Source: Verrucomicrobiales bacterium (GTDB taxonomy: Bacteria; Verrucomicrobiota; Verrucomicrobiia; Verrucomicrobiales; SLCJ01). Taken from it: a stretch of 64,000 nucleotides of DNA. The DNA lies in assembly GCA_046075565.1 (NCBI GenBank), contig JBJTQJ010000025.1, positions 73,326 through 137,325 on the forward strand, read 5' to 3'. Positions 5,994 to 42,432 of the stretch are shown here, one piece after another. The position numbers and the translations under genes are program-made. Positions within the stretch are counted from its first letter, which is position 1; each line of letters opens with the position of its first letter. The notes under the pieces are model-generated. The model was not told the origin of the DNA. It saw only the letters and a list, made by a program, of their open reading frames with translations, and ran no database searches.

Positions 5994-6172
5994 GCGCGTT
6001 ACTTTTCATAAGCGTGGCCTTGGATTGCCACGAACAGGCGTTCGAATCAAGCAGAATCGGAAAATTCACGTCTTTCCCGTGGCGAAACCCAGCCTCAAGC
6101 AATCGCGTGATGTGCGTGACTCCGACTTCGCTGCCGCCTCACAGGAAGCCGACTACTGGTGGGTCGGGTTTT

Positions 6173-6601
6173 TTAATCGAGCGGATTGATCCAGCGCAGG
6201 CTTGGGAAGCGCAGGAAATCGGAATCGGTGCTGTGGAGTTCACCCTGGTGTTCGACGGCCAGCGCAGCGAGTTGAGCGTCTGTTGTCAAATTTCCCGCTG
6301 TGCCAAGCAGGATCAGATACTCAAGAAATAGTGATTCGAATTTGGCGCCGGGGTGGATGATGCGAACGGGTTCTTGGGCCAGCCAGGAGCGCACATGTGC
6401 GACCGCTTCCCCCACGTCTAGCGGATGGGAAAGCACTCTGGGATGGGTCATCAGCCGGAGGAACCCGCTCATGCACACCCAGGGCAATCCCACGGGGACT
6501 CTGCCGTTCAGCAATCCTTCCCACCACGCTTTGGCCTTTTCGTGCTGCGGGGCCCGTTTGTTGTGGGCATAAATGAGAAGGTTGATATCCGGAATGATCA
6601 T
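6173..6601 (-). CDS. vapC: VapC family PIN-domain toxin
   Basis: IPDIN, DAQLAALA.E, STDSDF.RF..L.WINPL; start overlaps the antitoxin stop (ATGA). Confidence 0.92.
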   Translation of the reverse strand: MIIPDINLLIYAHNKRAPQHEKAKAWWEGLLNGRVPVGLPWVCMSGFLRLMTHPRVLSHPLDVGEAVAHVRSWLAQEPVRIIHPGAKFESLFLEYLILLGTAGNLTTDAQLAALAVEHQGELHSTDSDFLRFPSLRWINPLD

Positions 6602-6861
6602 GGCCGCGGGCCCTGTTTGGCTAGAAACTCTCCGGCCTCGATTTCATCCACCAGTTGATTCAGTTTTCCAGAATCGATGCCGGGGAGGAATGCGGACGAA
6701 TGGGGTTTCACCCGGTAAGGTTTCGGGCGTTTCGCTGCTGCCAAGCCCAGCCCTCTGCGCAGAGCCTCGTTGACAATCACCTTCAAAGGGCGCTTGCCTA
6801 ACGCCGCTTCCTGCTTGAGCCGGTCGGCTACCTCAGGATCTATCGTTAACGTTGTGCGCAT
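6598..6861 (-). CDS. vapB: VapB family antitoxin
   Basis: MRTTLTID...VNEALRRGL, 87 aa, directly upstream of the PIN toxin; start reassigned to ATG 6861. Confidence 0.88.
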   Translation of the reverse strand: MRTTLTIDPEVADRLKQEAALGKRPLKVIVNEALRRGLGLAAAKRPKPYRVKPHSSAFLPGIDSGKLNQLVDEIEAGEFLAKQGPRP

Positions 6862-6866
6862 GAGGC

Positions 6867-6905
6867 ATCTTCGCATCAATCTTTTTGATGTCAAGACATC
6901 AAAAA
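6867..6905 (-). promoter_or_regulatory. vapBC promoter with palindromic operator
   Basis: Perfect TTTTTGATGTC-AA-GACATCAAAAA (6882-6905) overlaps minus-strand TTGACA (6889-6894); GAAGAT -10-like element at 6867-6872. Confidence 0.7.
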
Positions 6906-6998
6906 TCGGAGGGAACCTCGCGGGGAAGCGGCGCATTTCACCATCGGCCGCAGTTGCAATCCCCGGGTATTTCGGCAAGACTGGGTCCACGACGGTTC

Positions 6999-7511
6999 AT
7001 GATTCCGCAGCATTATCCCATTGAAGACGGAAAACTTTATGGCGGGGAGTATCCCGCCGATAGGGATCCGAAAGTCGCAAGAGAACGCCTGTGGCCACTG
7101 GTCACTCTGGGCATCCGCACCTTCATTGACCTCACAAGCCCCGCTGACCGCATGGCTCCCTATGAAGCGATTCTCGGGGAATTGGAGAAAGAAGCCGGAT
7201 GTCATCTCCGCCGGATATCCGTGCCGATTGTGGACATGGGGATCCCCGAGAACAGCACGACGACGAAAACGATTCTTCAACATGTGAACGATTGTAAAAT
7301 CCACGCTCCGGCTGTCTATGTGCATTGTTGGGGCGGGATCGGTCGCACTGGCACGGTCGTCGGCTGTTGGCTCAGGGAATGTGGTTATGATCCGGAAGCC
7401 GCCTTGGCCCGTGTCCAGCACCTGTATGCCACGAACATGCCGAAAGTCCGCTTTCACCCGGAATCACCGCAGACGCCCGCGCAGAAGGATTACATCCGGA
7501 AGTGGTCGTAG
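6999..7511 (+). CDS. Protein-tyrosine/dual-specificity phosphatase family protein
   Basis: VHCWGGIGRTG CX5R P-loop, IVDMG acid loop, SPQT..Q C-terminal motif; start at ATG 6999. Confidence 0.9.
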   Translation: MIPQHYPIEDGKLYGGEYPADRDPKVARERLWPLVTLGIRTFIDLTSPADRMAPYEAILGELEKEAGCHLRRISVPIVDMGIPENSTTTKTILQHVNDCKIHAPAVYVHCWGGIGRTGTVVGCWLRECGYDPEAALARVQHLYATNMPKVRFHPESPQTPAQKDYIRKWS

Positions 7512-7534: not shown

Positions 7535-10021
7535 CTATTTGATCAACACTTCGCGAGGTTTCGCGCCTTCGCCGGGACCGACGTAGCCGCGTTGTTCCAG
7601 CAGATCCATCATTCGGGCGGCCCGTGTGTAACCGAGACGCAAACGCCGCTGGAGCAACGAGGTGGATGCACGCTTTTCCTGGATGATGACTTCCACGCAC
7701 TTCTGCAGCATTTCTTCATCCTCGTCGCTCACTTCCTCGCCATCATCGGAGTCACCGCCGGCGAGCACCTCTTCGATGCGGGTCTCGAATTTCTGTTCCC
7801 CTTGGCTGGAACAATGGTGGACCATACGATGCACTTCCTCGTCCGTTATGAAGGCGCCTTGGCAACGCAGGAGTTGCGCCGTGCCCGGCGGGAGATAGAG
7901 CATGTCGCCTTTGCCGACGAGTTTCTCCGCGCCATTCGCATCGAGGATGACCCGTGAATCGATACCCGAGGAAACTTGGAAGGCGATGCGGCTTGGGATG
8001 TTCGCTTTGATCACGCCGGTAATGACCGTTGAACGCGGCGTCTGGGTCGCGATGATCAAATGGATGCCGGCAGCACGGGCCTTCTGGGCGATTCGTGCGA
8101 TCAACATTTCAACATCCGCCGAAGCCGTCTGCATGAGGTCAGCCAACTCGTCGATGATGACCACGATGTAGGGGATCCGCTCTGGAATCGCTTCCTCTTC
8201 CGGTTCCGGTTCTTCATCAAAGTCCGGGCCGAACAGTTCTCCATCCTCGAGGGCGCGGGCCACGGATTCAATGGCTTCCTCATCCACTTCTTTGGATTCT
8301 TCTTCCGGTTCCGGTTCGGGCTCGACCGCCTTTTTCTCTTCTTGCGGTCGGTTGTTGAAGGAATCGAAGTTTCGCACTTTGACTTTGGCGAAAATCCGGT
8401 AGCGCCGTTCCATCTCAATCACCACCCAGCGCAGCGATTGAATCACCTTCTTCGCATCCGTTACCACCGGAGCGACGAGGTGAGGAAGTGTGTTGTATTC
8501 CGCCATCTCCACGACCTTCGGGTCCACCATGATCAACCGCAGCTCATCCGGCGTGAATCGGAACAACATCGACGCGATGATCGAGTTGAGACAGACCGAC
8601 TTACCCGAACCAGTGGAACCAGCCACGAGCAAGTGCGGCATGGCCGCGAGATCGCCCACGATGACATTCCCATACACATCCTTGCCGAGGGCGAGCGGGA
8701 TCTTTTTCTTCGACGAGGTGAACGCCGGATCCTCAAGCAACTCGCGCAGGGGCACCAGCACCTTCTTCGAATTCGCAATCTCGATGCCGACGGTATCCTT
8801 ACCGGGAATGGGCGCGATGATGTGGATGCGTTCAGCGCGGGTGGCCCGCGCGATATCGGCTTCAAGGGCGGCGATGCGGCTCACACGCAGGCCGGCCGTG
8901 GGATAAATTTCGTAGCGGGTGACGGTGGGGCCGCGGGTGATGTCGCCCGGTTTCACCATGATGCCGAACGTGGCCAATGTGTTGATGATGGTTTCCTGCG
9001 CGGCGATCAGCTCGTTTTTGTCGGCGGGCGTGTTGCCGGTCGGATCGCTCCAGTCGAGGATTTCCAATGTCGGCGTGGTGTAGCCGGGGAATTGCGCGCT
9101 CTCGAGTGGCTGCGGTTTCTTCTCCGGGAAGAGCACCGATCGTCCCGCCGGTTTTGTGGGTTGGCGGACGGACGAGTCAATGATCCGGCGCTCCGGCGCG
9201 AATTCGAGCGGTAATTCCGCCGGGACCGCTTCCGGCTCGGCCGGGGCGGGAATGACCACATCTTCCGGCAGGGGATCCTTCACCCGGCGCTGGCGTGTAG
9301 CTTTCGCAGGCGGGGGAGGCATCACGGGAGGAGCGACGGGCTGCGATGCCGTTTCTCGCTCGGCTTCCTCGCGGGCAAGTCGACGCTCTTCCAGCTTGTC
9401 AGCGAGCCCGCGTTTGCTCATTCTTGCGAATTGCCATGGGTGAATACCCGTGAAGAGCGGCAAAGCAACCAGATAAATCCCCACCAAAATCAGGATGGCA
9501 CCGACCTGTCCGAGCAGGCTCTCGAGCACCATCCCGCCGATGGCTTTGCCGAAGAATCCCCCGGGCGAATCCCCGAGTTGGTTGTAAATCGTGCCGTCGC
9601 CGTGCAGGAAAAGCCGCTGCACATGCAGCAAAGCCGCCGAACTGAGCAGCAGCAATCCCCAGCCCAGGAGCATTTTGCCCTGTTCGCGGCTGAGGCCCAT
9701 CAACCGACTCAAGCCCAGCCAGGCCATCCCAGCCGGCAAGAGATAAGCCGCCGCCCCGAATAGCAAATAGGCCCCAAGGGCCAGCACCGCCCCCACCGGA
9801 CCGATGAAATTCCTCGCTGGATGGTGCGGCTCGGCCAGGCTATTAAAACGAGTCCATGCCGGGAGGTCGCCGGCATCGAAGGAAATCAGGGCCAGGAAGA
9901 CCGCCAACGCGAAGATGCACAGCAGCACCGCGAAGATTGCACCTCGCTTCGGATGTTCGTCGGGACCATCCTCCTCCTCGAGTGGACGGGGATGGCGGAA
10001 GGTGTTCCTCGATGGTGCCAT
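7535..10021 (-). CDS. ftsK: DNA translocase FtsK
   Basis: N-terminal TM helices, Walker A GSTGSGKS, IIDELADLM, gamma domain STSLLQRRLRLGYTRAAR. Start is ATG 10021 or GTG 10045. Confidence 0.98.
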   Translation of the reverse strand: MAPSRNTFRHPRPLEEEDGPDEHPKRGAIFAVLLCIFALAVFLALISFDAGDLPAWTRFNSLAEPHHPARNFIGPVGAVLALGAYLLFGAAAYLLPAGMAWLGLSRLMGLSREQGKMLLGWGLLLLSSAALLHVQRLFLHGDGTIYNQLGDSPGGFFGKAIGGMVLESLLGQVGAILILVGIYLVALPLFTGIHPWQFARMSKRGLADKLEERRLAREEAERETASQPVAPPVMPPPPAKATRQRRVKDPLPEDVVIPAPAEPEAVPAELPLEFAPERRIIDSSVRQPTKPAGRSVLFPEKKPQPLESAQFPGYTTPTLEILDWSDPTGNTPADKNELIAAQETIINTLATFGIMVKPGDITRGPTVTRYEIYPTAGLRVSRIAALEADIARATRAERIHIIAPIPGKDTVGIEIANSKKVLVPLRELLEDPAFTSSKKKIPLALGKDVYGNVIVGDLAAMPHLLVAGSTGSGKSVCLNSIIASMLFRFTPDELRLIMVDPKVVEMAEYNTLPHLVAPVVTDAKKVIQSLRWVVIEMERRYRIFAKVKVRNFDSFNNRPQEEKKAVEPEPEPEEESKEVDEEAIESVARALEDGELFGPDFDEEPEPEEEAIPERIPYIVVIIDELADLMQTASADVEMLIARIAQKARAAGIHLIIATQTPRSTVITGVIKANIPSRIAFQVSSGIDSRVILDANGAEKLVGKGDMLYLPPGTAQLLRCQGAFITDEEVHRMVHHCSSQGEQKFETRIEEVLAGGDSDDGEEVSDEDEEMLQKCVEVIIQEKRASTSLLQRRLRLGYTRAARMMDLLEQRGYVGPGEGAKPREVLIK

Positions 10022-10143
10022 GGGGGCTGGAATAATAAAGCTCACCGAACCATCATGGTAGTAAAAATATCCCGCAAGGCAAAGCCGGGATTTTTCGAAT
10101 TTTGAGAACTTTTACCAATCCGGAGAATTTTCGACCGCGTCTC

Positions 10144-10680
10144 TCACCTCTTCCCGCTGATCGGTCTTCTCGATTCGACAAGCAATCGTGAACGCCGGTC
10201 ACGGCGGAGGGTGAACCGTTCGCGCAGGACACCGCGGGGTTTGTCTCCATGTTCGACCTCGATGGTGACCATCATGGGGAGGGCCTGGAAAGAAAGCACC
10301 CGGAAGAGAGGCGTGCGACGGGACCGGAGGAAGCAATGGAAAGGCACATCCTCATGGCGGGCATTCCAGAGGAAACCCGAAGGCGGAAAGTCGGATTCCT
10401 CGGAGAGGGCGGCGAAGGTTTCCCGCAGGATTTCCTCACCGTGTTCGCGCGCGAGTTTGGCGGCCTCGCGGCGGTTGAGGGCTTCTTCGATGGCGGCGGC
10501 GGGTCCGAGCCGGCGCGACTCGGCGATTTCGACGAGCAGGAACCGGGCGTGCGCGTCGATGGCGGCATGCAACTCTCGCCGGCTGATTTTTCCCAAATCA
10601 TACATCCGGAAGAGTTGGGCGGGGGTCGGCGGGGAGCGGAGCATCACGGCGGCGACAACAATACGCGGTTCAGGCATCCA
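10144..10680 (-). CDS. Hypothetical protein
   Basis: Helical protein-like ORF co-oriented with and overlapping the end of the M14 peptidase; start uncertain (10704/10680/10644). Confidence 0.65.
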   Translation of the reverse strand, partial: WMPEPRIVVAAVMLRSPPTPAQLFRMYDLGKISRRELHAAIDAHARFLLVEIAESRRLGPAAAIEEALNRREAAKLAREHGEEILRETFAALSEESDFPPSGFLWNARHEDVPFHCFLRSRRTPLFRVLSFQALPMMVTIEVEHGDKPRGVLRERFTLRRDRRSRLLVESRRPISGKR

Positions 10681-11449
10681 TGGCGCTTTCGACGGCGCGA
10701 ACAAACGCGGCCTGCGCGAGCACGCGGCGGTAGAGCGAAAACTCCGAGGGCGTCTCGAAGGTCAGCACTTGCCAGGCCCAATGGGTGTAAAGGGAAAAGG
10801 CCTCCGGCCATCCATCCATCCGGGGCAAGGCGGCGCGGCGAATCAATCCATCCTCGGCGGCCCGGCCTTCGATAACGTGGCGCGGATCATTCGGGATGTG
10901 CACGGTGGCGGCATCCATTGTCTCGCGTGCGAAGGCGCGGCGTCTGCGCCGGTAGAGTTCATAACAATAGTTGCCGCGCGCGTCGAAATCCTCGTGCAGA
11001 CAAACGGCGGTGTGGAACCAGCCTTCCGGGGTGTAACGCTCAAGCACACGTTCCCAGCGACGCACCAACGCGGGCATGGGGCTGGTGAAGGTCCGGTTCA
11101 GATCGCGGCCCCGGCGATCCTCGCGGCGATTGTGGACGAGACCCCATGGATTGAGGCAGGGAAAAATGAGCAACGGACGCTTCTGGCAGGCGAGGCGCAG
11201 GCGCGCCCATTCGATCAGGCCCCACACCGATGCCGGTTCGTCGCCGTGAATGCCCGCGCTCAGGTAGAGGCCGGGCTGGTCTGGATCACCCTCCTTGGCC
11301 ACCCAGATCACGGGAAAACCACCATCGGCGGCGAAGACTCCGATCTCAGCGCCCGCGTCGGAGGCCAGCACGCGCCATGCTTCAACCACGCCGCGATAGT
11401 CATGCGCGCGGTGGCGGGCGAGAAAATGATCTTCTTTGCGGGCGGGCAT
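10670..11449 (-). CDS. M14-family zinc carboxypeptidase (MpaA/desuccinylase-like)
   Basis: GIHGDE, NPWG, DLNR, LHED and FETP motifs; 12 bp downstream of mpl. Confidence 0.85.
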   Translation of the reverse strand: MPARKEDHFLARHRAHDYRGVVEAWRVLASDAGAEIGVFAADGGFPVIWVAKEGDPDQPGLYLSAGIHGDEPASVWGLIEWARLRLACQKRPLLIFPCLNPWGLVHNRREDRRGRDLNRTFTSPMPALVRRWERVLERYTPEGWFHTAVCLHEDFDARGNYCYELYRRRRRAFARETMDAATVHIPNDPRHVIEGRAAEDGLIRRAALPRMDGWPEAFSLYTHWAWQVLTFETPSEFSLYRRVLAQAAFVRAVESAMDA

Positions 11450-11461
11450 GCGATGGAAAAA

Positions 11462-12847
11462 TCAGAGACGCGCGAGCAGCTTGCCGTGGATACCACCGAA
11501 GCCGCCATTGCTGAGGACAAGCAAGACATCCCCATCGCGGGCAGCGGGCGCGACGCGCTCGACGATGGCATCAGCTCCACCCTCCAGCCAAGCCGGAATG
11601 CCGCGTATGGAAATCGATTCCACAAGGGCTCCGGGATCGAGGCGTTCGTCCTCCGGCACCTTGCCCGGATCCTCGACACGCGATATCACGGCGAGGTCTG
11701 CTCCTGCCACGGCATCGGCCAATTCGTTTTGGAAGACCTTGCGGCGGGTCGTGTTCGAACGCGGCTCGAAGATGGCCCACAACCGAGAACCAGGAAAACG
11801 CTGCCGCATGCTCGCGATGGACAGACGAATGGCGGTCGGATGATGGGCGAAATCATCGATCACCGAGACGCCATTTTTCACGCCGCGCAATTCCTGGCGT
11901 CGACCGACGCCATTGAATCCATCAAGAGCTTCTTGGATCTGCACATCGGTCAATCCCGCGTGCCTCGCGGCGGCGGCGGCCATGGCGGCATTCCGGATGT
12001 TGAATTCGCCATCCATGGGCACGGTGAAGACGGCTTCCCCGAGTCGGAAAGTTCCGCGTCCGGGCGCTGCTTCGTTCATGATGATGCGGTCGGTATTGTT
12101 TTCCCCGAAGCCGACCGATCGCACGGGAGCCGGGGACTGGGCCGTGACTTCGAGGCAGTTGGCGTCGTCGCCATTGATGATGACCAGTCCCCCGCGCGGA
12201 ACAACGCGCAGCAGACGCGAGAAGGTCAGTTTGACATCATCGATGGATTTATAAATATCGACGTGATCGAACTCGATGTTGTTCATCACGACCACTTCCG
12301 GCAGGTAGTGGAGGAACTTCGAGCGTTTGTCGAAGAACGCGGTGTCGTATTCATCGCCCTCGAGCACTGTCCATGGTGAGTCGGTGAAACGCGCGCCCAT
12401 GCCGAAGTTGCGCGGCATGCCACCGATGAGGAAACCCGGCTCACGCCCGGCATGCTCGAACATCCACGCCAGCATGCTCGTGGTCGTTGTCTTTCCGTGT
12501 GTGCCGCAGACCACGTAGTTGTGTTTGCCAATCAGGAAAAACCTCCGCAGCGCCTCCGGTAGCGATAGGTAGTCCATTTTCCGATCCAGCATGGCCTCGA
12601 CTTCCGGATTGCCGCGGCTGAGCGCGTTGCCAACCACCACCAGAGTGCCTTCGGGCGGAAGATTGGCCGGGTCATAGCCATCAAACAACCGGATGCCCGT
12701 GGTGCGCAGGAAATCCGACATGGGGGGATAACATTGGGCGTCGGACCCCGTGACTTGCCAGCCCCGGCGGGCCATGGCCGCCGCCACGGCCCCCATGGCC
12801 GTGCCGCAGACCCCGATAAAATGAATGGCGTTCGCGCCGTTTTGCAT
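11462..12847 (-). CDS. mpl: UDP-MurNAc:L-Ala-gamma-D-Glu-mDAP ligase Mpl
   Basis: GVCGTAMG, GTHGKTTT, EGDEYDTAFFDKRSKF, DDFAHHPTAI, EPRSNT, SNGGFGG. Confidence 0.95.
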   Translation of the reverse strand: MQNGANAIHFIGVCGTAMGAVAAAMARRGWQVTGSDAQCYPPMSDFLRTTGIRLFDGYDPANLPPEGTLVVVGNALSRGNPEVEAMLDRKMDYLSLPEALRRFFLIGKHNYVVCGTHGKTTTTSMLAWMFEHAGREPGFLIGGMPRNFGMGARFTDSPWTVLEGDEYDTAFFDKRSKFLHYLPEVVVMNNIEFDHVDIYKSIDDVKLTFSRLLRVVPRGGLVIINGDDANCLEVTAQSPAPVRSVGFGENNTDRIIMNEAAPGRGTFRLGEAVFTVPMDGEFNIRNAAMAAAAARHAGLTDVQIQEALDGFNGVGRRQELRGVKNGVSVIDDFAHHPTAIRLSIASMRQRFPGSRLWAIFEPRSNTTRRKVFQNELADAVAGADLAVISRVEDPGKVPEDERLDPGALVESISIRGIPAWLEGGADAIVERVAPAARDGDVLLVLSNGGFGGIHGKLLARL

Positions 12848-12999
12848 GCCCGGTATTCAAACCCCGGCAAGGCCCACCGGCAAGGGGAAAGGCGGGGCTT
12901 GCCTAGGGTCACCACAAATAAACCGCATTTCCGGGCAGCCTGCCACTCGGCCCAGAAAGCAGATATTGATCCCAGGCGATTGCCAGCCATGCTTCGGCC

Positions 13000-14052
13000 A
13001 TGGCCATCCACATCATCGTGCCACCCGAAAGCCGCGAACGCGCGGAGGAGCTGCGCGGCCGATTGCTGGCCGGTAGCACCATACCCGGCGCCCGGCTATC
13101 GGAGAAGCTAGGCACCGGGCCACCACCGGGCGACACCCCCGATTTCCTGCTCCGGCTGATCGCAACAAAAATGCCGAGGATCTTCGCGGAAAGTGAAATC
13201 AGCGGTGATGGCAGCGACTGGACACAGGAAGAGCTTCGTTTGTTAGGCGATGTTTCGGTGGCCGTAGATACGACCATCTTCGATGATGGCCGCCACCACT
13301 CGCCCCGTGTACATGAGAGGCGGTTCGGGGGCATGCTGGTTTTCACGCCGGGAGCGCTGTTGCGTGGCAATGGCATTTCACCACCTTGCGATCTCGCTGA
13401 AGTAACCGACTCCGCCGGGAACTTGGACGAGGATGCATTCACCGGCCTTTACCTCCGCCGCCTCAGCCCGGTTTTCGATTTCATTCATCATCGTGCTCTC
13501 GCTTTTGGCCAACGCGCTCTCGTTACCATGCCGGGACTTGGCTGCGGGCAATTTGCCGGGCGATTTGCCGGGAGGCTCGGGGCCATGCTTGGTCGCGCCC
13601 TTCACCACATCCTTTTGGTGAATGCAGCTAAATGGCCTGGCCTCGGCGCTGTTTATTACGATCCCTATTCCGAGGGGAAGAACGAACGTCATCGTATCGG
13701 AGAGACGGACTTTCTCATCCGCCCCTTGTGCCATGGAAACGAAGACAAGCCGCAGCTTTGTCCGCCGGAAAGTTATGCAGAAGCCGGAGATGATTTTTCC
13801 GGATTTCTTTTCCACGGCATCGTGGCATGGGACCATGTCTCCTGGCCCGGCAATGACTTCTGGGGAGGCGCTCGCGCGACGGATGACGGAGTCAAAGCCG
13901 CCGCGACCGATGTAATGAAATCCCTCACCGGAGTCGAAGGTTCCTACGATCCCGCGACCCATACCTACAAGCCACCGGGTCCTTGGCGAACCTGGGAAGA
14001 AGTCGCCAGTGCACACCACCCGGAATGGTGGCGAACGAATCTAAACCCCTAA
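13000..14052 (+). CDS. MavL-like macrodomain, putative ADP-ribosylhydrolase
   Basis: PGLGCGQFAG macro/PARG-type pyrophosphate loop; IFAES; AWDHVSWPGNDFWGGARATDDGVKAA matches the MavL catalytic loop as I recall it. Confidence 0.7.
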   Translation: MAIHIIVPPESRERAEELRGRLLAGSTIPGARLSEKLGTGPPPGDTPDFLLRLIATKMPRIFAESEISGDGSDWTQEELRLLGDVSVAVDTTIFDDGRHHSPRVHERRFGGMLVFTPGALLRGNGISPPCDLAEVTDSAGNLDEDAFTGLYLRRLSPVFDFIHHRALAFGQRALVTMPGLGCGQFAGRFAGRLGAMLGRALHHILLVNAAKWPGLGAVYYDPYSEGKNERHRIGETDFLIRPLCHGNEDKPQLCPPESYAEAGDDFSGFLFHGIVAWDHVSWPGNDFWGGARATDDGVKAAATDVMKSLTGVEGSYDPATHTYKPPGPWRTWEEVASAHHPEWWRTNLNP

Positions 14053-14088
14053 ATCACCGGCCTGACAGCCCGCTCGAGAGGATCCCCA

Positions 14089-17000
14089 TTACTCGAAGCG
14101 GCAAATGGCCTCAATTCCGGCGGCCGAGCCGTCGCGTAACCAGCCATCGAGTTGCGATTGATCCTTGAGTTGCTGGCCACGCGGGCGGGGCACGGCGAGG
14201 AAGCGGACTGCGGCATCGGGCAAAGTGGTCATGTCGCCCCAAAGCTTCTCGAACTGCGCCACCGGCAGGATGTCTTCTTGTCCATTGCCCCAGCGTTTCT
14301 TCACATCCTTAAGGGTCACATAAGTCGGCATACGTGCGGCCAGGGCCCGCACCCCGGCGGTCACGGCGTCGGCATCACCGAGCGACGCTCGATCGAGTTC
14401 GAAGAGGGCGAGCATCCGGTCGATGTGGATCCAGTTGGTGGCAGAGTTATAAAAGGTGAGTTTGAATTCGTCGTCGTCGCGCGCCATGGCGAGTCCTTCG
14501 ACCAAACGCAATTGCCCGTTGATGCGGGCGAGACCGCCGCCCCGGTCTTCGATGCGTCGGCGGATCACTTCGACACTCAAGGCCGCGCCTTCGAGAATGT
14601 GGCGGCCGAAGACTGTCGGATCGAGGTTCGCGCCGAGCGTGTCGATGTTGTGCAATAACAAATGCTCGAGGCGCGGGTTTTCCTTCACCATCGCGGCGAG
14701 TGTGCCATTGAGCAGAAGATTGGCGATCTCATACCAATGCCCGACTGGGTGCAGGCATTGCAAGGGCACATTGTCGGTGTAATCGCTGGCTTCACCATTT
14801 TGAATCGCCCAGTCGATAAGCGCCTTTTGCAAGCTGCGCCGGTTTTTCTCCTTCTGCGGATCGAGCTGTTGGTGCGCGACTTCTTCAAAAGCAAAGCGCA
14901 GGTCACGCGCCGTCGGAACCATACGCAAGCCGATGGATCGCCCCGGCGAAAGGATAACCTGACCGCCGTAGCCGAACTGCTCGTGTGTATCAAGGAACTC
15001 GCGGGTCGGCCCCTGCGTGAGGAAACTCGTGGTGAACACATGCGCCGGCAGACAGCCGTATTCCATGCCGATAGCCCGGCTCTTTGCCAAATGGGTCTCG
15101 AGGAAACTGCGGTGGCGGCCGGACAACTTCGCGAATGGATGCAAGGCCTTGACCGTGCCCGCGCCCTGGGTCCAGCGGCTCCCGGCTCCGGCGGCGAGTG
15201 TCACGACGGCAATCCGGCCTTCCGACAAGGCTTGCTCGCCGATGCGTTTGGCTTCCTCATCGGCATGGTAAAGTGAAACCACATCTCCCTCGCGCGCATC
15301 TTCCACGGTCGTGGTGACCGGCAATCGATTCTGGGCCAAGCCGATGCGCCCGGACCGCAGATCCTCGCGGATGCGTTCGTGCTGCACGGCATCAAATCCC
15401 TGTGCGGCCAACAACTCGGCGAGGTTGCCCTGTGGTTCGCCGCCTTTGCGTTCGGCGGGCGGGAAAATCCGGTGGATCAACGGGCCAACCAACGGGCGTT
15501 CACCCGCCATGAGGCTGCGTTCGGCGAAAGCATCCATCTCCTGGCGCGTTGTCGCCTTGAGCGTGCGCGGATCCTGGCGAAGCCAACGCGGCACCATCAT
15601 CAGATAATACTCCGAAGACAACATGGCTTCACTGCCAGTTAGGAGAACGGAGGTCGATCCATTCTCATTGATGGTGAAATCATAGACCACAGGATCCATG
15701 GCGAAAGGCAATGCATTCTCCAGTTCACCTTTGCTGCGCCGCATGATTTCCAGAATGGCGGCGCGGGCCGATGCCTTTTGCGCGGGATCAACCCAGAAGC
15801 CCATGCCGCCGCCGGACATGCCCCCGAGCATGACGAAACCACGGAAGGCGTCGCCGAGCGCTTCCTTCGCGCGTGCGATGAGCCATTCGGTGTAAGCGTT
15901 GCTCGCCCACGGGATGATGGCTTGCAGCGGACCGAAGAAATTGCGGGTGGTGAGTTCGGCCACACGATCCACTTCACCTGCTTGCAAGGCATTGACGATC
16001 CCATGCAGGATTTGCTGCGCTTCCAATCGTGCCTCCCACTCCTTTTCCAGTTTGAGCAGGTATTTCTCCGTCACCATCTCGAGAATGGGGCCGACATTCT
16101 GCGACATCCCGCCGTGCACGAGGATCAAGCTGTCCTGCAATTGCTGGCGCGTTTCCGGAGAAATGCGATCCTGCCCAAACAAAGTATGGCGTGGCAACAA
16201 ACGGCCGCGGCTGATACCGCATTCGGTATCACCATCAACCGCCGCCTCGCCTTGGATCAACTTGATGCCCGGCCAGACCCCGCCGGAGTCCTGCCATCCG
16301 CCGCCAGAACCACCCAGCCATTCGCCAAGAATGGCGCGGCTCGCGATGGTGCGGCGTTCATCTTCGCTCAGTCCGCCGGTCAGGCTTTCCGTCTGCCCGC
16401 TTGCCCGCATACAGAGCGCGATGAGGCATCCTAACAAATTGGTCGACACCGCCAGGCGCGAACCCTTCGGGATATCGCGCACCTGGGAAACAATTTCCAG
16501 GCCCTTGCCGGGTCCGCAGAGCGCGGCCAGCACATCCGACAAGGCATGACCAGAGCCCTCCATGGCTGATGGGATGATGCCGGAGGCAATGACGGCCGCC
16601 TTGAGCAGCCCGAGGTAATCCTTGGCAAAGTCGAACAAATCATCCAGCGAATCGACATCGGCAATGGCCCCGAGATCGACGCTGGCCAACCGCAGCACTG
16701 GCTCATCGATCACGCGCAGGTAAGCACCGACCGGCGGCAAGGTCGAGGTATCGCGACCGTGCACACCGAGATCGACGGAGATATTGAGCACCTTGGCTCC
16801 CTCCGGATAATCCATGCCAAGGAAAAAGATATCCGACCAAGCGGCATGACTCAGGTCCATACGCACCGAGGTTTGCTCGCGCAGCACCGGATACACGCCG
16901 TGTGCGCCGCCGCTTTGCAAAAGCTCCGGGCGCAGGCGCAAGGGATAGTCGGAAGGATGCCCGGTGCGGAACATCCATTGGTTTCCCTTCACCTTGCGCA

Positions 17001-17406
17001 CGGTTTTCTGCACCTGCTGGGCGAGAGTCTTGAATGCCAATCCATGATAGGCGGAGGCCAGCGCGCTGCTGAGCGGGTCACTCGCTCCTTGGATGCGCTG
17101 GTGCTCCAGATAAACAGAAATGGCTTCCTCGAACCGCCGCGAGAGGCAAAGCTCGTGGCCTTCGTAAGGAATGGTCCCGGTGGTGTCGGCCGGATAATGA
17201 GGAGGCAAAAAATATCGATGGATCGCTTCGAGGAAAAAGATGGCGCGGACGCGATGATAGAAGTTTCCCGCTTCGAGGCGGAAAGACTCGAAGGCGTCGG
17301 CCATCGCCTCCAAACCGGATCGATCCGACGATCGACAGAGGGCTTCGAATGATATCCCGTCGGCGGCGTTTCCTTCCACCAGGGATTGCAGGCGTGGGTC
17401 CAACAT
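14089..17406 (-). CDS. Fused GHMP-family sugar kinase / UDP-sugar pyrophosphorylase-like protein
   Basis: Kinase half: VRMDL, PKGSRLAVS, GGGWQD, LGGMSGGG. Transferase half: TLAAGAGSRW, HPVGH, HNIDTLG, QFEK, QLKD. Confidence 0.8.
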   Translation of the reverse strand: MLDPRLQSLVEGNAADGISFEALCRSSDRSGLEAMADAFESFRLEAGNFYHRVRAIFFLEAIHRYFLPPHYPADTTGTIPYEGHELCLSRRFEEAISVYLEHQRIQGASDPLSSALASAYHGLAFKTLAQQVQKTVRKVKGNQWMFRTGHPSDYPLRLRPELLQSGGAHGVYPVLREQTSVRMDLSHAAWSDIFFLGMDYPEGAKVLNISVDLGVHGRDTSTLPPVGAYLRVIDEPVLRLASVDLGAIADVDSLDDLFDFAKDYLGLLKAAVIASGIIPSAMEGSGHALSDVLAALCGPGKGLEIVSQVRDIPKGSRLAVSTNLLGCLIALCMRASGQTESLTGGLSEDERRTIASRAILGEWLGGSGGGWQDSGGVWPGIKLIQGEAAVDGDTECGISRGRLLPRHTLFGQDRISPETRQQLQDSLILVHGGMSQNVGPILEMVTEKYLLKLEKEWEARLEAQQILHGIVNALQAGEVDRVAELTTRNFFGPLQAIIPWASNAYTEWLIARAKEALGDAFRGFVMLGGMSGGGMGFWVDPAQKASARAAILEIMRRSKGELENALPFAMDPVVYDFTINENGSTSVLLTGSEAMLSSEYYLMMVPRWLRQDPRTLKATTRQEMDAFAERSLMAGERPLVGPLIHRIFPPAERKGGEPQGNLAELLAAQGFDAVQHERIREDLRSGRIGLAQNRLPVTTTVEDAREGDVVSLYHADEEAKRIGEQALSEGRIAVVTLAAGAGSRWTQGAGTVKALHPFAKLSGRHRSFLETHLAKSRAIGMEYGCLPAHVFTTSFLTQGPTREFLDTHEQFGYGGQVILSPGRSIGLRMVPTARDLRFAFEEVAHQQLDPQKEKNRRSLQKALIDWAIQNGEASDYTDNVPLQCLHPVGHWYEIANLLLNGTLAAMVKENPRLEHLLLHNIDTLGANLDPTVFGRHILEGAALSVEVIRRRIEDRGGGLARINGQLRLVEGLAMARDDDEFKLTFYNSATNWIHIDRMLALFELDRASLGDADAVTAGVRALAARMPTYVTLKDVKKRWGNGQEDILPVAQFEKLWGDMTTLPDAAVRFLAVPRPRGQQLKDQSQLDGWLRDGSAAGIEAICRFE

Positions 17407-17420
17407 GATTCCGGAGTGGG

Positions 17421-18269
17421 TTAGCGGCGGGCGGCGTCGAGGGAAAGTTCTTCGGCGAGTATGGCGAGCAACTCGGCCCGCGCAGGGCCGGCCAAGCCCA
17501 GCGCCAATTGGGCGCGCAAGACCCCGAAGCGTGCCTCCAGGTCAGCCCGTCTTCCGCGCAATTCCGCCGCCAGGTATTTTTCCCGCGAGGCAAGGCGTGC
17601 GAGCGCCGGGGTGAGTCCGGCTTTTCCATCTTTGGCTCGCGCCGCTTCTTCTTCTAACAAGGTGAAGATGCTCGGTCCGAGCACGTGCATGCCGAAAAAG
17701 CAGAGGTAAAATCCGCTCCGCAATCCCGGGACGACACATGATTGTTCGGCCAGCGTCGGGGTCGGCTTCTCATAGACATTCTCCACCGTGTAGAGGCCGG
17801 ACCGACCGGGGCACAGCAATCCCGCCACCGTGCCATAGTAGCGCAACTGGCTCTCGTGCGTGGCTTGCACCGCCGAGACCGAACAATCCTGCTCGGCAGC
17901 GATCTCCAGCAACTGCCGGGTGCAACTCGCCTCGACTTCGCTCACATAAAGATGGTCGCTCACTTGCAGCAGGAAAGGTTTGCCGGCGGTGAAATCCTTG
18001 CCGCAAAGCACCGCCTGGCCATAGCCGGAAGGTTTCGCCTGCTCGATGAGGGTGACTTTTCCCCCGAATCCGGAGAGAAGCTGCTCGTAGGCGGCCCGCT
18101 CCGATGGCTTCACCACCACCCCGGCTTTTTCAATCCCGGCCGAGAACAGTTCCTCCAACTGGATGACCATGGCCGCCTTCCAATCGCCCTGGCGATCATT
18201 CAGGTTCTGCATGGGCAGGCGGCGGGAATCCGGACCGGCGGCGGTGATAAGGGCATGTTTAGCTTTCAT
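17421..18269 (-). CDS. GalU-like sugar-phosphate nucleotidyltransferase (degenerate N-terminal motif)
   Basis: TAAGPDSRRLP, EQ..P.GYGQAV, PFLLQVSDH, YEKP. Confidence 0.8.
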   Translation of the reverse strand: MKAKHALITAAGPDSRRLPMQNLNDRQGDWKAAMVIQLEELFSAGIEKAGVVVKPSERAAYEQLLSGFGGKVTLIEQAKPSGYGQAVLCGKDFTAGKPFLLQVSDHLYVSEVEASCTRQLLEIAAEQDCSVSAVQATHESQLRYYGTVAGLLCPGRSGLYTVENVYEKPTPTLAEQSCVVPGLRSGFYLCFFGMHVLGPSIFTLLEEEAARAKDGKAGLTPALARLASREKYLAAELRGRRADLEARFGVLRAQLALGLAGPARAELLAILAEELSLDAARR

Positions 18270-18371
18270 GATAGGCGCTGAGGGCAGTGGCCCGCCACTA
18301 TCCGAAATATTGCCTCAGGAAACAAGTGATTTTAGCGCCATTCCGTTCGCCCGGAGGCGGGGGAAACGCCC

Positions 18372-18851
18372 TCACATCTTGGCTGCCACCGCCCGGCCAA
18401 TCTCCATCAGTCGCGCCTTTTCTTCGTCCGAGAAATCATGGGGCACCATCAGGCCCACGCCAAGCGTGCCCCGTAAGCTGCCGGTGTGCAGACAAGGCAC
18501 GGCCAGCGAGCCTTGCACGTTGGTCGCCCGCGCTCCGGGCTTCGCCACCCCTCCGAGGTCCGCCTGCAAATTGCACAATTCCACCGGCTCCCGGCGTTCG
18601 GCTGCCGCGCCCGCGATGCCCTTGCCTATCGGGATTTTTTCAATGACCGGCATCAATTGCGGCGGAATACCGCGCTGCGCGACCAGTGCCAGCAAATTCG
18701 TCTCCTCATCGAGCCGATGCAGCGTCCCGGTTGTCCCATTGAAGGAGGCGATGGTGGCATCAAGCACTTCCTGCCAATCGATGATGGGTGAGGATAAGAA
18801 ATCGTTAATCTTGGAATCCATGGTGATTGTGTCGGCAATGTATGTTCTCAC
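18372..18851 (-). CDS. Stand-alone GAF domain protein
   Basis: IPIGKGIAGAAAE..EPV and SLAVP....GTLGV GAF signatures; start may be ATG 18821. Confidence 0.85.
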   Translation of the reverse strand: MRTYIADTITMDSKINDFLSSPIIDWQEVLDATIASFNGTTGTLHRLDEETNLLALVAQRGIPPQLMPVIEKIPIGKGIAGAAAERREPVELCNLQADLGGVAKPGARATNVQGSLAVPCLHTGSLRGTLGVGLMVPHDFSDEEKARLMEIGRAVAAKM

Positions 18852-19174
18852 CTTTCCTCCATCTCGCGCAGTTTGTCGCCGATTTCGCGCAGATAGCCGT
18901 AGGAATAGATGCCGGTCCGGTGGCCGTCGGAAAAAGCGATGGCAAGAGCATATCCACCAACCGTCTGCCAGGAAATGACGCGCACTCCGGAGTGGTCGCG
19001 CTTTTCCTCGCCCCCGTATTGTTTTCCTAACAAATCACGTTCACCCATGGTTTCCGCGCTAGGCGACCACGCCCGCAGGCGGTCCATGGGATAAATGTCT
19101 TCCCTTCCATCGGACCAGCGGATGGCGAGAAAGTCGCCGATGGCCTGCACGTCGTCGGGGAGAGGAACTGACAT
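18848..19174 (-). CDS. DUF971 (GBBH N-terminal-like) protein
   Basis: I.WSDG, LRA.SPSAE, VGGYAL.I.FSDGH.TGIYS. Confidence 0.9.
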   Translation of the reverse strand: MSVPLPDDVQAIGDFLAIRWSDGREDIYPMDRLRAWSPSAETMGERDLLGKQYGGEEKRDHSGVRVISWQTVGGYALAIAFSDGHRTGIYSYGYLREIGDKLREMEER

Positions 19175-19181
19175 GGCGGGC

Positions 19182-20180
19182 TCACGCGTGGTTTTGCAGC
19201 AGACGCGCGGCTAACGGCGCGTGGTAAGTGAGGATCATGTCGGCCCCGGCACGTTTGATGCCCACCAATGATTCGAGCACGACCTTGTCGCGGTCGAGCC
19301 AACCGGCGGCGGCGGCCGCTTCGATCATTAGGTATTCACCGCTCACCTGGTAGGCGGCGAGTGGCAGGGTGGTGGACTCGCGCAAGCGGGCCAGCACGTC
19401 GAGATACGGCCCGGCAGGTTTGACCATGAGAATATCAGCACCCTCTTGCTCGTCGAGCATCGCCTCGCGTATGGCCTCGCGGGTGTTGGTCGGGTCCATC
19501 TGATACGTCATCTTGTCGCCTTCCTTGGGAGCGGAGTCGAGAGCCCCGCGGAATGGACCGTAGTAAGCGGACGCATATTTCGCGGTGTAGGCGAGGATGT
19601 TGATTGAGTCGAACCCGGCATCGTCGAGGCTGAAGCGCAGGGCCCCGACCCGACCGTCCATCATATCGCTGGGGGAAATGATATCGGCTCCCGCGCGGGC
19701 ATGGCAAAGGGCCTGCTGGCAAAGCGCATCAACCGTCGCGTCATTCACGATTTCCAGCGAACCATCGGCGGCTCGTTTGACCAATCCATCATGGCCGTCG
19801 GAGTTGTAGGGATCGAGCGCGACATCGGTGATGATACACAATCCCGGATGCGCCGACTTCAAGGCGCGGATGGCCCGCGGGATGAGACCATCGTCATTCC
19901 AAGCTTCTTCGGCACCCGGTGTTTTCAGTTCCGCCGCGATGGCCGGAAAAAGCACCACCGCGGGGATGCCAAGCGCGTGGGCCCGTCCGGCCTCGGCAAC
20001 GAGACCCTCCAGCGACCAACGGGTGCAACCCGGCATCGAAGCGATGGGCTGGTCGTCGTTTCCCGCATGCAGGAAAAGCGGGTAAATGAGGTCGCCGGGC
20101 GCGAGTCGTGTTTCCCGCACGAGCGAGCGGATCGCGGGAGTCCGCCGGTTGCGGCGCGGACGGATGGGGAGGTCGAGCAT
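19182..20180 (-). CDS. hemB: Porphobilinogen synthase
   Basis: RPRRNR, DVALDPY..DGHDG, SPSDMMDGR, YASAYYGPFR, MVKP, AYQVSGEY. Confidence 0.98.
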   Translation of the reverse strand: MLDLPIRPRRNRRTPAIRSLVRETRLAPGDLIYPLFLHAGNDDQPIASMPGCTRWSLEGLVAEAGRAHALGIPAVVLFPAIAAELKTPGAEEAWNDDGLIPRAIRALKSAHPGLCIITDVALDPYNSDGHDGLVKRAADGSLEIVNDATVDALCQQALCHARAGADIISPSDMMDGRVGALRFSLDDAGFDSINILAYTAKYASAYYGPFRGALDSAPKEGDKMTYQMDPTNTREAIREAMLDEQEGADILMVKPAGPYLDVLARLRESTTLPLAAYQVSGEYLMIEAAAAAGWLDRDKVVLESLVGIKRAGADMILTYHAPLAARLLQNHA

Positions 20181-20206
20181 CGCGATGACGAGGTGCCCGT
20201 TTGTCC

Positions 20207-20791
20207 TCAGGCGCGCACCGGGCTTGCCGACGGTGTCGACTGCCGGGCGGGCGCGAGGGCCACGAGGAAGAGGGCGGCGAAACCGAGGTTACCAGCCAGC
20301 GACTTGAGCAGGAAGGCCCAACTCGGGAGGAACCCGGGCAGCCCGGTGGTGTGCGCTTGCACGAGACCGGTCACGGTCTTCGGATAAAGCGGATTCACGG
20401 CCCAAGAAACCGAGTTGGCCAGCAGGTGGAAAGCAACCACGGCCAAGACCGTCGAACCGAGATAGGGAAGGGCCAGTGAAGCGCGGCGGGCCAGCGGGCG
20501 ACCGGCCAAAAATAGCACGGAGTAGAACCCGATGGTCAGCAGCATGTAGGGGTGGAAAGCCGAGGTCTTGTAAACCACGACATTCAGAATGAGATCCGAA
20601 ATCAGGAACGCGGCGGCAGGGACCCAGGCCAGGCGGGCGTTCGGGGCGAGCACGGCAGCTCCCAGCACGAGGGCGGCGAAAGGAGCGAAGCCGGACAATG
20701 GGGCGGCAAGGTCGGCGGAGGCAAATCCTGTCCCCACACGGTAAACCACAACAGCAACTAGGAGAAAGAGAGCAGTCAGTCGCGAATTCAT
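20207..20791 (-). CDS. DUF6580-like putative membrane transport protein
   Basis: About 6 TM helices, FAPFAAL, ISDL, Y.KT..GL.QA...GLP; start reassigned to ATG 20791. Confidence 0.7.
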   Translation of the reverse strand: MNSRLTALFLLVAVVVYRVGTGFASADLAAPLSGFAPFAALVLGAAVLAPNARLAWVPAAAFLISDLILNVVVYKTSAFHPYMLLTIGFYSVLFLAGRPLARRASLALPYLGSTVLAVVAFHLLANSVSWAVNPLYPKTVTGLVQAHTTGLPGFLPSWAFLLKSLAGNLGFAALFLVALAPARQSTPSASPVRA

Positions 20792-21002
20792 AGCCCCACA
20801 AAGTGAACGACACCGTGCCCCTGCGCAAGGGCGGAATGGGAAAATTTGAGGAGAAAGGGAAGAACCGATATCGGTTTTTCGCTTTCCATCATCCCAGCGA
20901 TCCGGAAGCCCTCCCGCCTTGATTTGCCCGATAAACGCAACTCCACGGGGTTTCGGCAATTCCCCTTGGCAATCGGGGCCAATCCGTGGCAGTCTCGTGC
21001 TC

Positions 21003-42389: not shown

Positions 42390-42432
42390 GGTTTTCCGCT
42401 AACGCACGGCGGCATAGATGCTAGACTTCCGC

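Follow-up and report, generated by a model that had tools for sequence, protein, structure and literature searches.

Macrodomains that release ADP-ribose specifically from arginine were recognized recently, and only in effectors of Legionella and in a pair of proteins from flies. When assayed, the class members MavL, Larg1, CG2909 and CG3568 all turned out to be arginine specific (PMC10951314, cited here and below from excerpts). In MavL, F105 and E107 position the arginine, and T331-D332-D333 coordinate the catalytic water and the 2'' OH of the ribose; mutational data exist for the catalytic residues of this enzyme (PMC10951314). DUF4804 is found in bacteria, fungi and arthropods, according to the same source.

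The DNA considered here, a stretch of 64,000 nucleotides from a Verrucomicrobiales bacterium (the window), harbors a gene of the MavL type. We think it rather probable that the gene product is an active, cytoplasmic, stand-alone MavL-type hydrolase acting on mono-ADP-ribosyl-arginine, which in many lineages goes together with a dedicated phosphatase of the DSP type.

The macrodomain gene and its catalytic residues

The features referred to in the text are the following:

6999..7511, + strand: DSP-type Cys phosphatase of 170 amino acids with an intact HCWGGIGRTG active site; reading frame open from 6885; candidate partner of the macrodomain protein
13000..14052, + strand: MavL-family macrodomain gene, 350 amino acids, ATG start; predicted mono-ADP-ribosyl-arginine hydrolase
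13180..13194, + strand: IFAES loop, residues 61-65, in which F62 and E64 align with F105 and E107 of MavL
13528..13554, + strand: di-phosphate-binding loop MPGLGCGQF, residues 177-185, with F185 corresponding to MavL F227
13531..13560, + strand: PGLGCGQFAG, residues 178-187
13828..13863, + strand: catalytic loop WDHVSWPGNDFW, residues 277-288, containing D278, N285 and D286
13831..13902, + strand: DHVSWPGNDFWGGARATDDGVKAA stretch, from residue 278
13879..13887, + strand: T294-D295-D296, aligned with MavL T331-D332-D333

A first-pass annotation of this DNA had quoted the reading frame 13000-14052, its motifs and its catalytic residues, all of which were found where it had placed them, and the MavL numbering that it had given (D315, N322, D323, D333) agrees with PMC10951314. 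It had also proposed a MavL-like macrodomain of a fold independent of DraG and akin to Larg1 and to the animal DUF4804 proteins. Profile, PDB and structure comparisons all agree with this proposal, as does PMC10951314 with respect to the kinship. The protein matches PF24754 (MavL) with 379.3 bits against a Pfam cut-off of 27 (E = 1.6e-113; residues 5-327, profile positions 3-323 of 325), a sequence match far above chance, and phmmer against the PDB finds the crystal-structure chains of MavL at E~1e-60 over residues 2-328. Neither PF16062 (DUF4804) nor PF03747 (DraG/ARH) matches the protein at E<=1. The comparison of an AlphaFold model with MavL and Larg1, which had been suggested as a check, gave superposition on MavL: the best Foldseek matches of the AF2 model (mean pLDDT 82.6) are all MavL (TM 0.86-0.89, rmsd 2.3-2.9 Å), followed, at E = 3.9e-8 to 2.6e-5, by Drosophila CG3568 and CG2909 and then by Larg1. 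The model has the overall MavL fold, with pLDDT <50 in the active-site loops 59-68 and 279-285.

In the alignment F62, E64, H99, F185 and Y223 correspond to F105, E107, H142, F227 and Y265 of MavL, and in the phmmer alignment D278, N285, D286 and D296 pair with D315, N322, D323 and D333 of 8xep_A and T294 with T331. The set catalytically required in MavL (F105, E107, F227, D315, D323, D333) is present in its entirety, and judged by sequence the window protein is a MavL-type macrodomain with a complete catalytic set. The loop WDHVSWPGNDFW fits WDxx[S/A]xPGN[D/E][F/Y][F/W/Y] exactly and is invariant among 15 homologs, as are I61, F62, A63, E64 and S65. The loop MPGLGCGQF keeps the glycines and the aromatic residue of [V/I/L]xGxGxGx[F/W/Y] and deviates only by the M at position 1, a conservative exchange with which the strict pattern fails. 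The proximal-ribose contacts K236 and T224 of MavL are replaced by G194 and C182, a point against a MavL-like activity. Identity across phyla is ~50%, and the alignment of the 15 sequences has 90 invariant columns.

By a MavL-like, substrate-assisted mechanism the enzyme would remove mono-ADP-ribose from arginine side chains: water held by T294 and D296 would be activated by the phosphates of ADP-ribose, D278, N285 and D286 would hold the distal ribose, and F62 and E64 would position the arginine. The protein appears to be cytoplasmic. The 19-residue Kyte-Doolittle mean peaks at 1.12 and the N-terminus is charged; neither a signal peptide, whose lack had already been noted in the first-pass annotation, nor a membrane helix is apparent from the hydropathy profile and from inspection of the N-terminus.

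Distribution, neighborhood and the search for a writer

The occurrence of such a gene outside Legionella had been taken to be special, which did not stand, the family being widespread and already curated. A family search yielded 1423 protein clusters, the species-representative genomes contain 247 MavL-like stretches from at least 8 phyla, and in RefSeq and UniRef such proteins already carry the name of DUF4804- or MavL-domain protein. The window gene is an ordinary member of a catalogued family common among environmental bacteria and alone adds little. Most of the family resides in free-living environmental bacteria, the carriers being mostly free-living Verrucomicrobiota, methanotrophs, Chloroflexota and cyanobacteria, and the effector of Legionella appears to be an offshoot of this environmental clade. 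What the family does in these free-living bacteria is, to our knowledge, a question that nobody has asked.

The window protein groups with those of free-living Verrucomicrobiota. Its nearest proteins are 74-76% identical, and a metagenome scan for relatives returned 12 loci, none with more than 61% identity. Among 61 related genomes the gene is present in two. The family tree largely tracks phyla, with 17 label changes versus a shuffled mean of 38.5. In phages homologs are nearly absent (none in 50,697 records, one IMG/VR locus). More distant homologs were seen in Legionella brunensis, in Candidatus Berkiella and on a Piscirickettsia plasmid.

These distant homologs, together with ankyrin repeats in some long MavL forms, would fit a secreted effector directed, like MavL in Legionella, against a eukaryotic host or predator. 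Such a role of the window protein is nevertheless highly improbable: it has no signal peptide, it stops near aligned MavL residue 365 and is missing the C-terminal tail of MavL, and the carriers of the family are mostly the free-living organisms named above.

From 7535 to 21004 the + strand carries no gene but that of the macrodomain protein, in line with the opposite orientation to its neighbors that had been claimed for it. Both flanking genes, those of Mpl and of a 1105-aa protein, are on the - strand; with Mpl, an AstE/MpaA-like peptidase, FtsK and HemB as neighbors in the window the context is a housekeeping one. In three of seven relatives Mpl is linked to an MpaA-like gene, and in none of the seven does the 1105-aa gene lie beside Mpl. 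Synteny on the side of the 1105-aa gene is not conserved (0/7), and the comparison speaks neither for nor against an insertion of the macrodomain gene between otherwise adjacent genes. Composition was rejected as a sign of transfer: the GC3 of the macrodomain gene is 0.624 (mean 0.675, sd 0.045; sixth lowest of 50 window genes), that of the phosphatase gene is thirteenth lowest of the 50, and values only about 1 sd below the mean are too weak a signal.

The reported absence of an ADP-ribosyltransferase from the window was confirmed for the 33 ORFs scanned with Pfam (within 145-42389; ORFs of at least about 110 aa), none of which matches an ADP-ribosyltransferase family. The survey of neighborhoods that had been recommended gave the same answer: for 114 immediate neighbors of MavL-like genes, there is no ART family among the 25 families listed, all those matched by at least two neighbors included. 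The ART families PF01129, PF07357, PF03496 and PF01375 gave no match in the genome of the window; these are weak negatives because the control genomes are equally silent. Since no ADP-ribosyltransferase was seen next to these genes, the eraser would act on modifications written elsewhere, be it by an incoming toxin, by an enzyme of a phage or by one of the cell's own enzymes whose gene is not linked.

If the writer is foreign, the protein could confer orphan immunity, reversing the arginine ADP-ribosylation that phages bring about with Alt/Mod-type enzymes, or other bacteria with ART toxins, in the way in which DraG-type Tri1 counteracts Tre1. Besides the missing linked writer and the patchy occurrence among the 61 related genomes, two loci point in this direction: in a genome of the same family (G001) the genes next to the MavL-like one encode a PLD-like protein and the methylase of a type I restriction-modification system, and the copy on a Sphaerotilus plasmid belongs to an island that also contains BrxD, WYL and DUF262 genes. 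The fusions of erasers of several folds described below would fit a broad-spectrum detoxifier. On the other hand, no PADLOC defence family is matched by more than two of the 114 immediate neighbors, the neighbors in the window are housekeeping genes, homologs are nearly absent from phages, and a tree that tracks phyla looks more like long residence in lineages than like a fast-moving immunity gene. We regard a protective role of this kind as possible rather than probable.

The writer could also be endogenous and encoded at a distance, for example an enzyme of the Sir2 type or an ART that escaped detection, and the eraser would then reset a protein of the cell in a regulatory cycle comparable to that of DraT and DraG. 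Adjacency, which is usual for known writer-eraser pairs, is absent here, and this reading is in our opinion unlikely. In its favor, the Sphaerotilus plasmid has on one strand an operon of AAA ATPase, SIR2, MavL-like and DSP phosphatase genes, the genome of the window has one SIR2 gene and one ARH gene elsewhere (the ARH gene being the sole PF03747 match, on contig C113), and the ~50% identity across phyla with its 90 invariant columns would fit a conserved target. SIR2 is, however, found beside a MavL-like gene in the Sphaerotilus locus only, and the Sphaerotilus Sir2 protein matched no other locus compared; the SIR2 of the window's genome is uninformative because its family is present in 10 of 14 control genomes. 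The surroundings of the ARH gene are uninformative as well.

Association with a DSP phosphatase and with other erasers

The first-pass annotation had overlooked a phosphatase link and a set of fusions: the fold of the family is independent of DraG, yet its members are frequently fused to a domain of the DraG type. The phosphatase gene of the window sits 5.5 kb upstream of the macrodomain gene, with four housekeeping genes on the - strand in between. Its product matches PF22784 PTP-SAK (3.8e-14) and PF22785 (2.3e-12), and also PF22741, a DSP-PTPase family fused to NAD+ kinase. Phosphatases whose genes directly adjoin MavL-like genes in other Verrucomicrobiota share 59-70% identity with it. In 12 of 80 MavL genome loci a homolog is adjacent on the same strand, either upstream or downstream of the MavL gene; for full-length stand-alone copies the gaps are 35-73 bp, and on the Sphaerotilus plasmid the gap is 19 bp. 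One carrier of the adjacent pair is a cultured Luteolibacter. A PF03747 domain is fused in 93 of 120 long phosphatase homologs, among the matches listed, and in 39 of 66 long MavL homologs. A single protein combines ARH, microbial PARG and phosphatase domains, and in some long forms ankyrin repeats are fused to phosphatase homologs and to MavL homologs. Our literature search found no paper tying this type of DSP-PTPase to ADP-ribosylglycohydrolase fusions or to MavL.

The coupling of MavL and phosphatase is facultative. The phosphatase is absent from all 12 metagenome MavL loci, and in two of five further MavL-positive Verrucomicrobiota genomes it is found elsewhere in the genome. Co-occurrence of the two genes at the level of genomes was also considered and is not supported among the relatives, G001 having a MavL-like gene without a phosphatase match and 20 other relatives a phosphatase match without a MavL match. 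Among the scanned neighbors of the phosphatase-only loci in G010 and G031 there are no ADP-ribose-related genes. A complex prediction for the macrodomain protein with the phosphatase of the window (score 0.00, mark 0.32) is evidence for neither side.

The pairing and the DraG-type fusions suggest an eraser module without a linked writer. In many lineages a dedicated DSP-type cysteine phosphatase would work alongside the eraser, and we infer that the ortholog in the window belongs to the same functional unit as the macrodomain protein. More tentatively, and with considerable doubt, we propose that domains of the MavL, DraG and microbial PARG types can replace one another as heads of a widespread two-enzyme module without a linked writer, of which the DSP phosphatase is the constant part and which reverses a compound modification. 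If this is true, the module would reverse ADP-ribosylation plus phosphorylation, or remove a phospho-ADP-ribosyl group, the modification stemming from foreign toxins, from phage enzymes or from Sir2-type defence effectors that are held in check; the window would then contain a split copy, phosphatase 6999-7511 and macrodomain 13000-14052.

A variant in which the substrate is not a protein is quite improbable. Together with the phosphatase, the hydrolase would here process a phosphorylated derivative of ADP-ribose or an ADP-ribosylated end of a nucleic acid. The match of the phosphatase to PF22741 would fit. Since the hydrolases of ADP-ribose with which it is linked, ARH, microbial PARG and MavL, have three unrelated folds, the common denominator may be ADP-ribose-phosphate chemistry. 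Against this stand the four assayed members of the class, which are specific for arginine-linked protein or peptide substrates (PMC10951314), the invariance in 15 homologs of F62 and E64, the residues predicted to position the arginine, and the ankyrin repeats on both phosphatase and MavL homologs, which suggest protein targets.

For the preferred reading, an arginine-specific hydrolase assisted in many lineages by a phosphatase, the pairing and the DraG-type fusions provide a concrete, testable handle on the role of the MavL family. The questions raised are whether the pair is a two-step eraser, which substrate it has, and whether it protects against ADP-ribosylating toxins or phage enzymes.

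Comparison with known systems

Legionella pneumophila MavL (lpg2526; PDB 8DMP, 8DMR, 8IPW, 8XEP, 6OMI) and the window protein have PF24754 and the fold in common and are about 35% identical when aligned by structure. The signature loops of MavL both recur in the window protein, as do equivalents of F105, E107, F227, D315, N322, D323, T331 and D333. The window protein lacks the N-terminal 41 residues of MavL and the region beyond about residue 365, the alignment ending at MavL residue 365 and query residue 328 of 350. In the SidE pathway MavL serves as a Dot/Icm metaeffector; the window protein is no Dot/Icm effector and is not filed here as a functional ortholog. Since its host has neither ubiquitin nor a SidE system, the physiological substrate must differ from that of MavL.

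Drosophila CG2909 and CG3568 (DUF4804, PF16062) and Legionella Larg1 (Lpg0081) belong to the same class of arginine-specific macrodomains (PMC10951314) but are far more distant from the window protein (8-14% identity, TM 0.45-0.60). DarG and other TARG1-type proteins are likewise macrodomain erasers that neutralize an ADP-ribosyltransferase, with an active-site architecture that differs from the MavL type (PMC10951314). The gene of DarG, which acts on thymidine in single-stranded DNA, adjoins that of its writer DarT (PMC11668277, from an excerpt), whereas no linked writer was seen for the window gene. DraG, ARH1 and Tri1 (PF03747) have an unrelated fold and need two metal ions (PMC10951314). 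The reaction predicted for the window protein is nevertheless the same as theirs, the removal of ADP-ribose from arginine. Immunity by means of such an enzyme has its precedent in Tri1.

The MavL-like protein and its active site

The ORF at 13000-14052 (+ strand, ATG start) encodes a protein of 350 amino acids that belongs to the MavL family beyond doubt. It matches Pfam PF24754 (Macrodomain effector MavL) with E = 1.6e-113 (379 bits versus a cut-off of 27, profile positions 3-323 of 325), and six different MavL chains from the PDB align with its residues 2-328 at E = 6e-60 to 7e-59. With an AlphaFold2 model derived from an alignment of 15 sequences (mean pLDDT 82.6, pTM 0.87), Foldseek returned as best PDB hits exclusively MavL entries (E about 1e-32, TM 0.86-0.89, about 35% identity), followed by Drosophila CG3568 and CG2909 and then by Larg1/Lpg0081, in agreement with the family as delineated in PMC10951314. 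The first-pass annotation had thus correctly recognized both the MavL-like macrodomain and its kinship with Larg1 and animal DUF4804 proteins. On re-reading, its ORF, its motifs with their coordinates, and D278, N285, D286 and D296 agreed exactly:

13180-13194, + strand, IFAES (residues 61-65)
13531-13560, + strand, PGLGCGQFAG (residues 178-187)
from 13831, + strand, long acidic stretch starting at residue 278

In the alignment to MavL (crystal chain 8xep_A), F62, E64, H99, F185 and Y223 correspond to MavL F105, E107, H142, F227 and Y265, and D278, N285, D286, T294 and D296 to D315, N322, D323, T331 and D333; counting along it reproduced the numbering of D315, N322, D323 and D333 in PMC10951314, as cited in the first-pass annotation. 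As described in PMC10951314, these ten MavL residues hold adenine, distal ribose, arginine and the proposed catalytic water, and activity suffers when D315, D323, D333, F227, F105 or E107 is mutated. The window protein agrees exactly with the published catalytic-loop motif, and with the published di-phosphate-loop motif at all but the first position (M instead of V/I/L). It differs from MavL in the proximal-ribose contacts K236 and T224, replaced by G194 and C182, which are invariant across the environmental clade. The structural check suggested earlier bore out the fold; it did not extend to superposition of individual residues, since pLDDT is <50 in both active-site loops (residues 59-68 and 279-285).

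Most MavL homologs begin at MavL Met41 according to PMC8699189, a start point that the window protein fits because its residue 2 aligns to MavL residue 42. It has neither a hydrophobic N-terminus nor a membrane helix (maximum 19-residue Kyte-Doolittle mean 1.12), as expected from the claimed absence of a signal peptide. A complete conserved MavL-type active site is present in an apparently cytoplasmic stand-alone protein. The cytoplasmic location need not hold for every family member: one homolog (P0120) is extended at its N-terminus by about 110 residues, in which a lipoprotein-like hydrophobic stretch precedes a Cys.

Distribution and phylogeny

Occurrence outside Legionella, which had been put forward as a special feature, is the rule and not the exception. 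In a protein-cluster search, 1423 clusters out of 8000 scored candidates passed E<=1e-3; among the matches listed, 120 of 120 carry PF24754, are 49-76% identical to the query and have source names including Verrucomicrobiota, Anaerolineaceae and others. In contigs from one genome per species, 259 stretches matched the search pattern and 247 of them code for a relative. The 80 loci retained represent Verrucomicrobiota, Methylococcales, Chromatiales, Chloroflexota, Cyanobacteriota, Planctomycetota, Thermodesulfobacteriota, Bacteroidota and other groups. In UniRef the name "Macrodomain effector MavL domain-containing protein" is already in use, and RefSeq labels a plasmid-borne homolog "DUF4804 domain-containing protein". 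According to PMC8699189, L. pneumophila shares MavL homologs with only one other Legionella species.

In the order to which the window belongs, the gene occurs patchily: it was found in 2 of 61 genomes searched (G000 and the same-family G001). Plasmids seldom carry it (2 of 72,556), and it is all but absent from phages, with none of 50,697 records and, in a pattern-limited scan of IMG/VR, 1 locus. This sole viral-collection locus (L115; gene at 6001-6978, 40% identity) lies on an 85-kb contig that may be a true phage or a misclassified piece of a chromosome. Four genomes have two loci each on different contigs (L004/L016, L008/L023, L032/L043, L047/L072), which may be paralogs or assembly duplicates.

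A quick maximum-likelihood tree of 76 rows was calculated from 68 locus ORFs of at least 320 amino acids, the window protein and 7 database proteins, leaving aside loci missed by the crude gene caller (e.g. L029, L037) and the duplicates L001 and L081. The window protein groups with two relatives of 67-76% identity inside a mainly Verrucomicrobiota clade; the proteins of Legionella brunensis and Candidatus Berkiella form long-branch rows of unsure placement outside the environmental clade. Phylum labels are clustered (17 changes versus a shuffled mean of 38.5). That the tree largely follows lineages speaks against the earlier proposal of orphan immunity, in which the MavL-like eraser protects against foreign ADP-ribosylation.

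Gene context and the DSP-type phosphatase

The surroundings of the gene in the window, assigned via Pfam, are housekeeping, which also argues against orphan immunity:

3249-5993, + strand, PEP carboxylase
6173-6601, - strand, PIN-domain (VapC-like) protein (PF01850, 7.2e-8), directly upstream of the phosphatase gene
6999-7511, + strand, dual-specificity-type (DSP) cysteine phosphatase
7535-10045, - strand, FtsK
10670-11449, - strand, AstE/MpaA-like peptidase
11462-12847, - strand, Mpl, flanking the MavL-like gene
13000-14052, + strand, MavL-like gene
14089-17406, - strand, 1105-aa protein with a weak UDPGP match, flanking the MavL-like gene
17421-18269, - strand, nucleotidyltransferase
19182-20180, - strand, HemB

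Further metabolic genes follow beyond HemB. Between 7535 and 21004 the MavL-like gene is the sole + strand gene, as the claim that it lies opposite to all neighbours implied. The - strand genes on either side (10670-12847 and 14089-18269) may form a cluster for cell-wall recycling or sugar nucleotides; in 3 of 7 relatives Mpl and the MpaA-like gene are likewise linked. Farther along the + strand, the ORFs 26610-28148, 30882-33083 and 34581-37037 (512, 733 and 818 aa) matched nothing in Pfam at E<=1e-4, and an IS200-like Y1 transposase ORF (PF01797) and the next ORF, together spanning 41313-43962, have a low GC3 of 0.58-0.59, the lowest and third-lowest of 50 window genes measured.

The phosphatase (about 170 aa; Pfam matches PF22784 PTP-SAK, PF22785 and PF22741) has an intact HCWGGIGRTG site. 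Tblastn with it found a copy in 12 of the 80 genome loci (in 65 of which the MavL-like gene has >600 bp on each side), always directly beside the MavL-like gene and on the same strand, and in none of 12 metagenome loci. Seven of the twelve are from Verrucomicrobiota (gaps 35-73 bp), with the phosphatase upstream in L005, L008, L010, L014 and L037 and downstream in L003 and L029 (copies partial in L008 and L029); five are from Methylococcaceae or Crenothrix, where the phosphatase has a C-terminal ankyrin-repeat extension (copy partial in L061). The window phosphatase is 59-70% identical to the Verrucomicrobiota copies adjoining MavL-like genes; the best matches in MavL-negative genomes of the window's order reach only 50-51%. 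In the window the phosphatase lies 5.5 kb upstream of the MavL-like gene with four - strand genes in between. The coupling is facultative: G001 has the MavL-like gene without a phosphatase match, the reverse is true of 20 MavL-negative relatives, and of 5 more Verrucomicrobiota genomes positive for MavL only 2 have the phosphatase, on another contig. No ADP-ribose-related neighbours were found at the phosphatase-only loci examined.

The same pair, with a 19-bp gap, is present on the betaproteobacterial Sphaerotilus sulfidivorans plasmid NZ_CP035707, where AAA ATPase, SIR2, DUF4804 (MavL-like) and DSP phosphatase genes follow on the same strand (locus L116, 3789-8516) in an island that also has brxD, a WYL gene and a DUF262 gene. 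The arrangement is a candidate for a defence operon that includes its own eraser pair. ORFs directly 5' of the MavL-like gene in Halochromatium (L076, 7307-7975) and a Chloroflexi bin (L075, 7394-7813) resemble the C-terminal half of the AAA ATPase and a hypothetical protein of the Sphaerotilus operon. In G001 (L091, 385-9016) the MavL-like gene adjoins a PLD-like gene, a type I HsdM methylase and two large same-strand ORFs.

Linked genes, domain fusions and proposed function

In the window, no ADP-ribosyltransferase (writer) family was found among 33 ORFs scanned with Pfam, all within 145-42389, in line with the earlier statement that a cognate writer is absent. PF01129, PF07357, PF03496 and PF01375 were not found across the window's assembly, the control genomes being equally silent, so that the negative holds for these families only; the genome's one PF03747 (DraG/ARH) gene is on contig C113 and its one SIR2 gene on C40, in each case in an uninformative context. 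All-against-all clustering of 830 crude ORFs from 83 sequences (82 loci and the window stretch) gave largest neighbour clusters of 7 loci each, leaving out the MavL cluster and its antisense-ORF cluster (7 loci). Among 114 immediate neighbours of MavL-like genes the commonest Pfam family was M24 peptidase (5). The neighbourhood survey proposed earlier revealed no writer among the 25 families listed, a set that takes in all those with at least 2 of 114 matches and beyond which lie 118 further families. DUF1810 (PF08837) and Fic (PF02661) were matched by 2 of the 114 each. No PADLOC family had >2 matches, a low defence-gene content that weighs against orphan immunity; the writer-less context itself is compatible with it, as are the two defence-island cases (G001 and the Sphaerotilus plasmid) and the eraser fusions.

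Among MavL homologs >613 aa, 39 of the 66 listed combine PF24754 with PF03747; in two that were rescanned the ARH domain is N-terminal and the MavL domain C-terminal. The corresponding search with the phosphatase gave 638 long homologs at E<=1e-3 among 1329 candidates, and 93 of 120 among the matches listed carry PF03747, the phosphatase being N-terminal and the ARH domain C-terminal in two rescanned cases. One protein consists of ARH, microbial-type PARG and phosphatase; another joins a truncated MavL domain to a truncated phosphatase and may reflect a deletion or assembly artefact. Fusions and adjacency thus show one phosphatase clade repeatedly joined to three unrelated ADP-ribose-hydrolase folds, in a network connecting phosphatase, ARH domains and MavL domains.

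From homology with the four characterised members described in PMC10951314, the window enzyme would hydrolyse Arg-linked mono-ADP-ribose. MavL-like genes are widely distributed and have no linked writer among the neighbours examined; the enzyme would erase marks written in trans, often acting together with the phosphatase, which may remove phosphate from a phospho-ADP-ribosyl group or from a product, or a second, independent mark on the same target.

A search of the accessible literature found no paper connecting MavL or DUF4804 with a DSP phosphatase and no description of ARH-DSP fusions. The window gene belongs to a known, already curated family. Judging by the Pfam names PTP-SAK and PTP-NADK, comparative-genomics work has probably treated the phosphatase clade as well.
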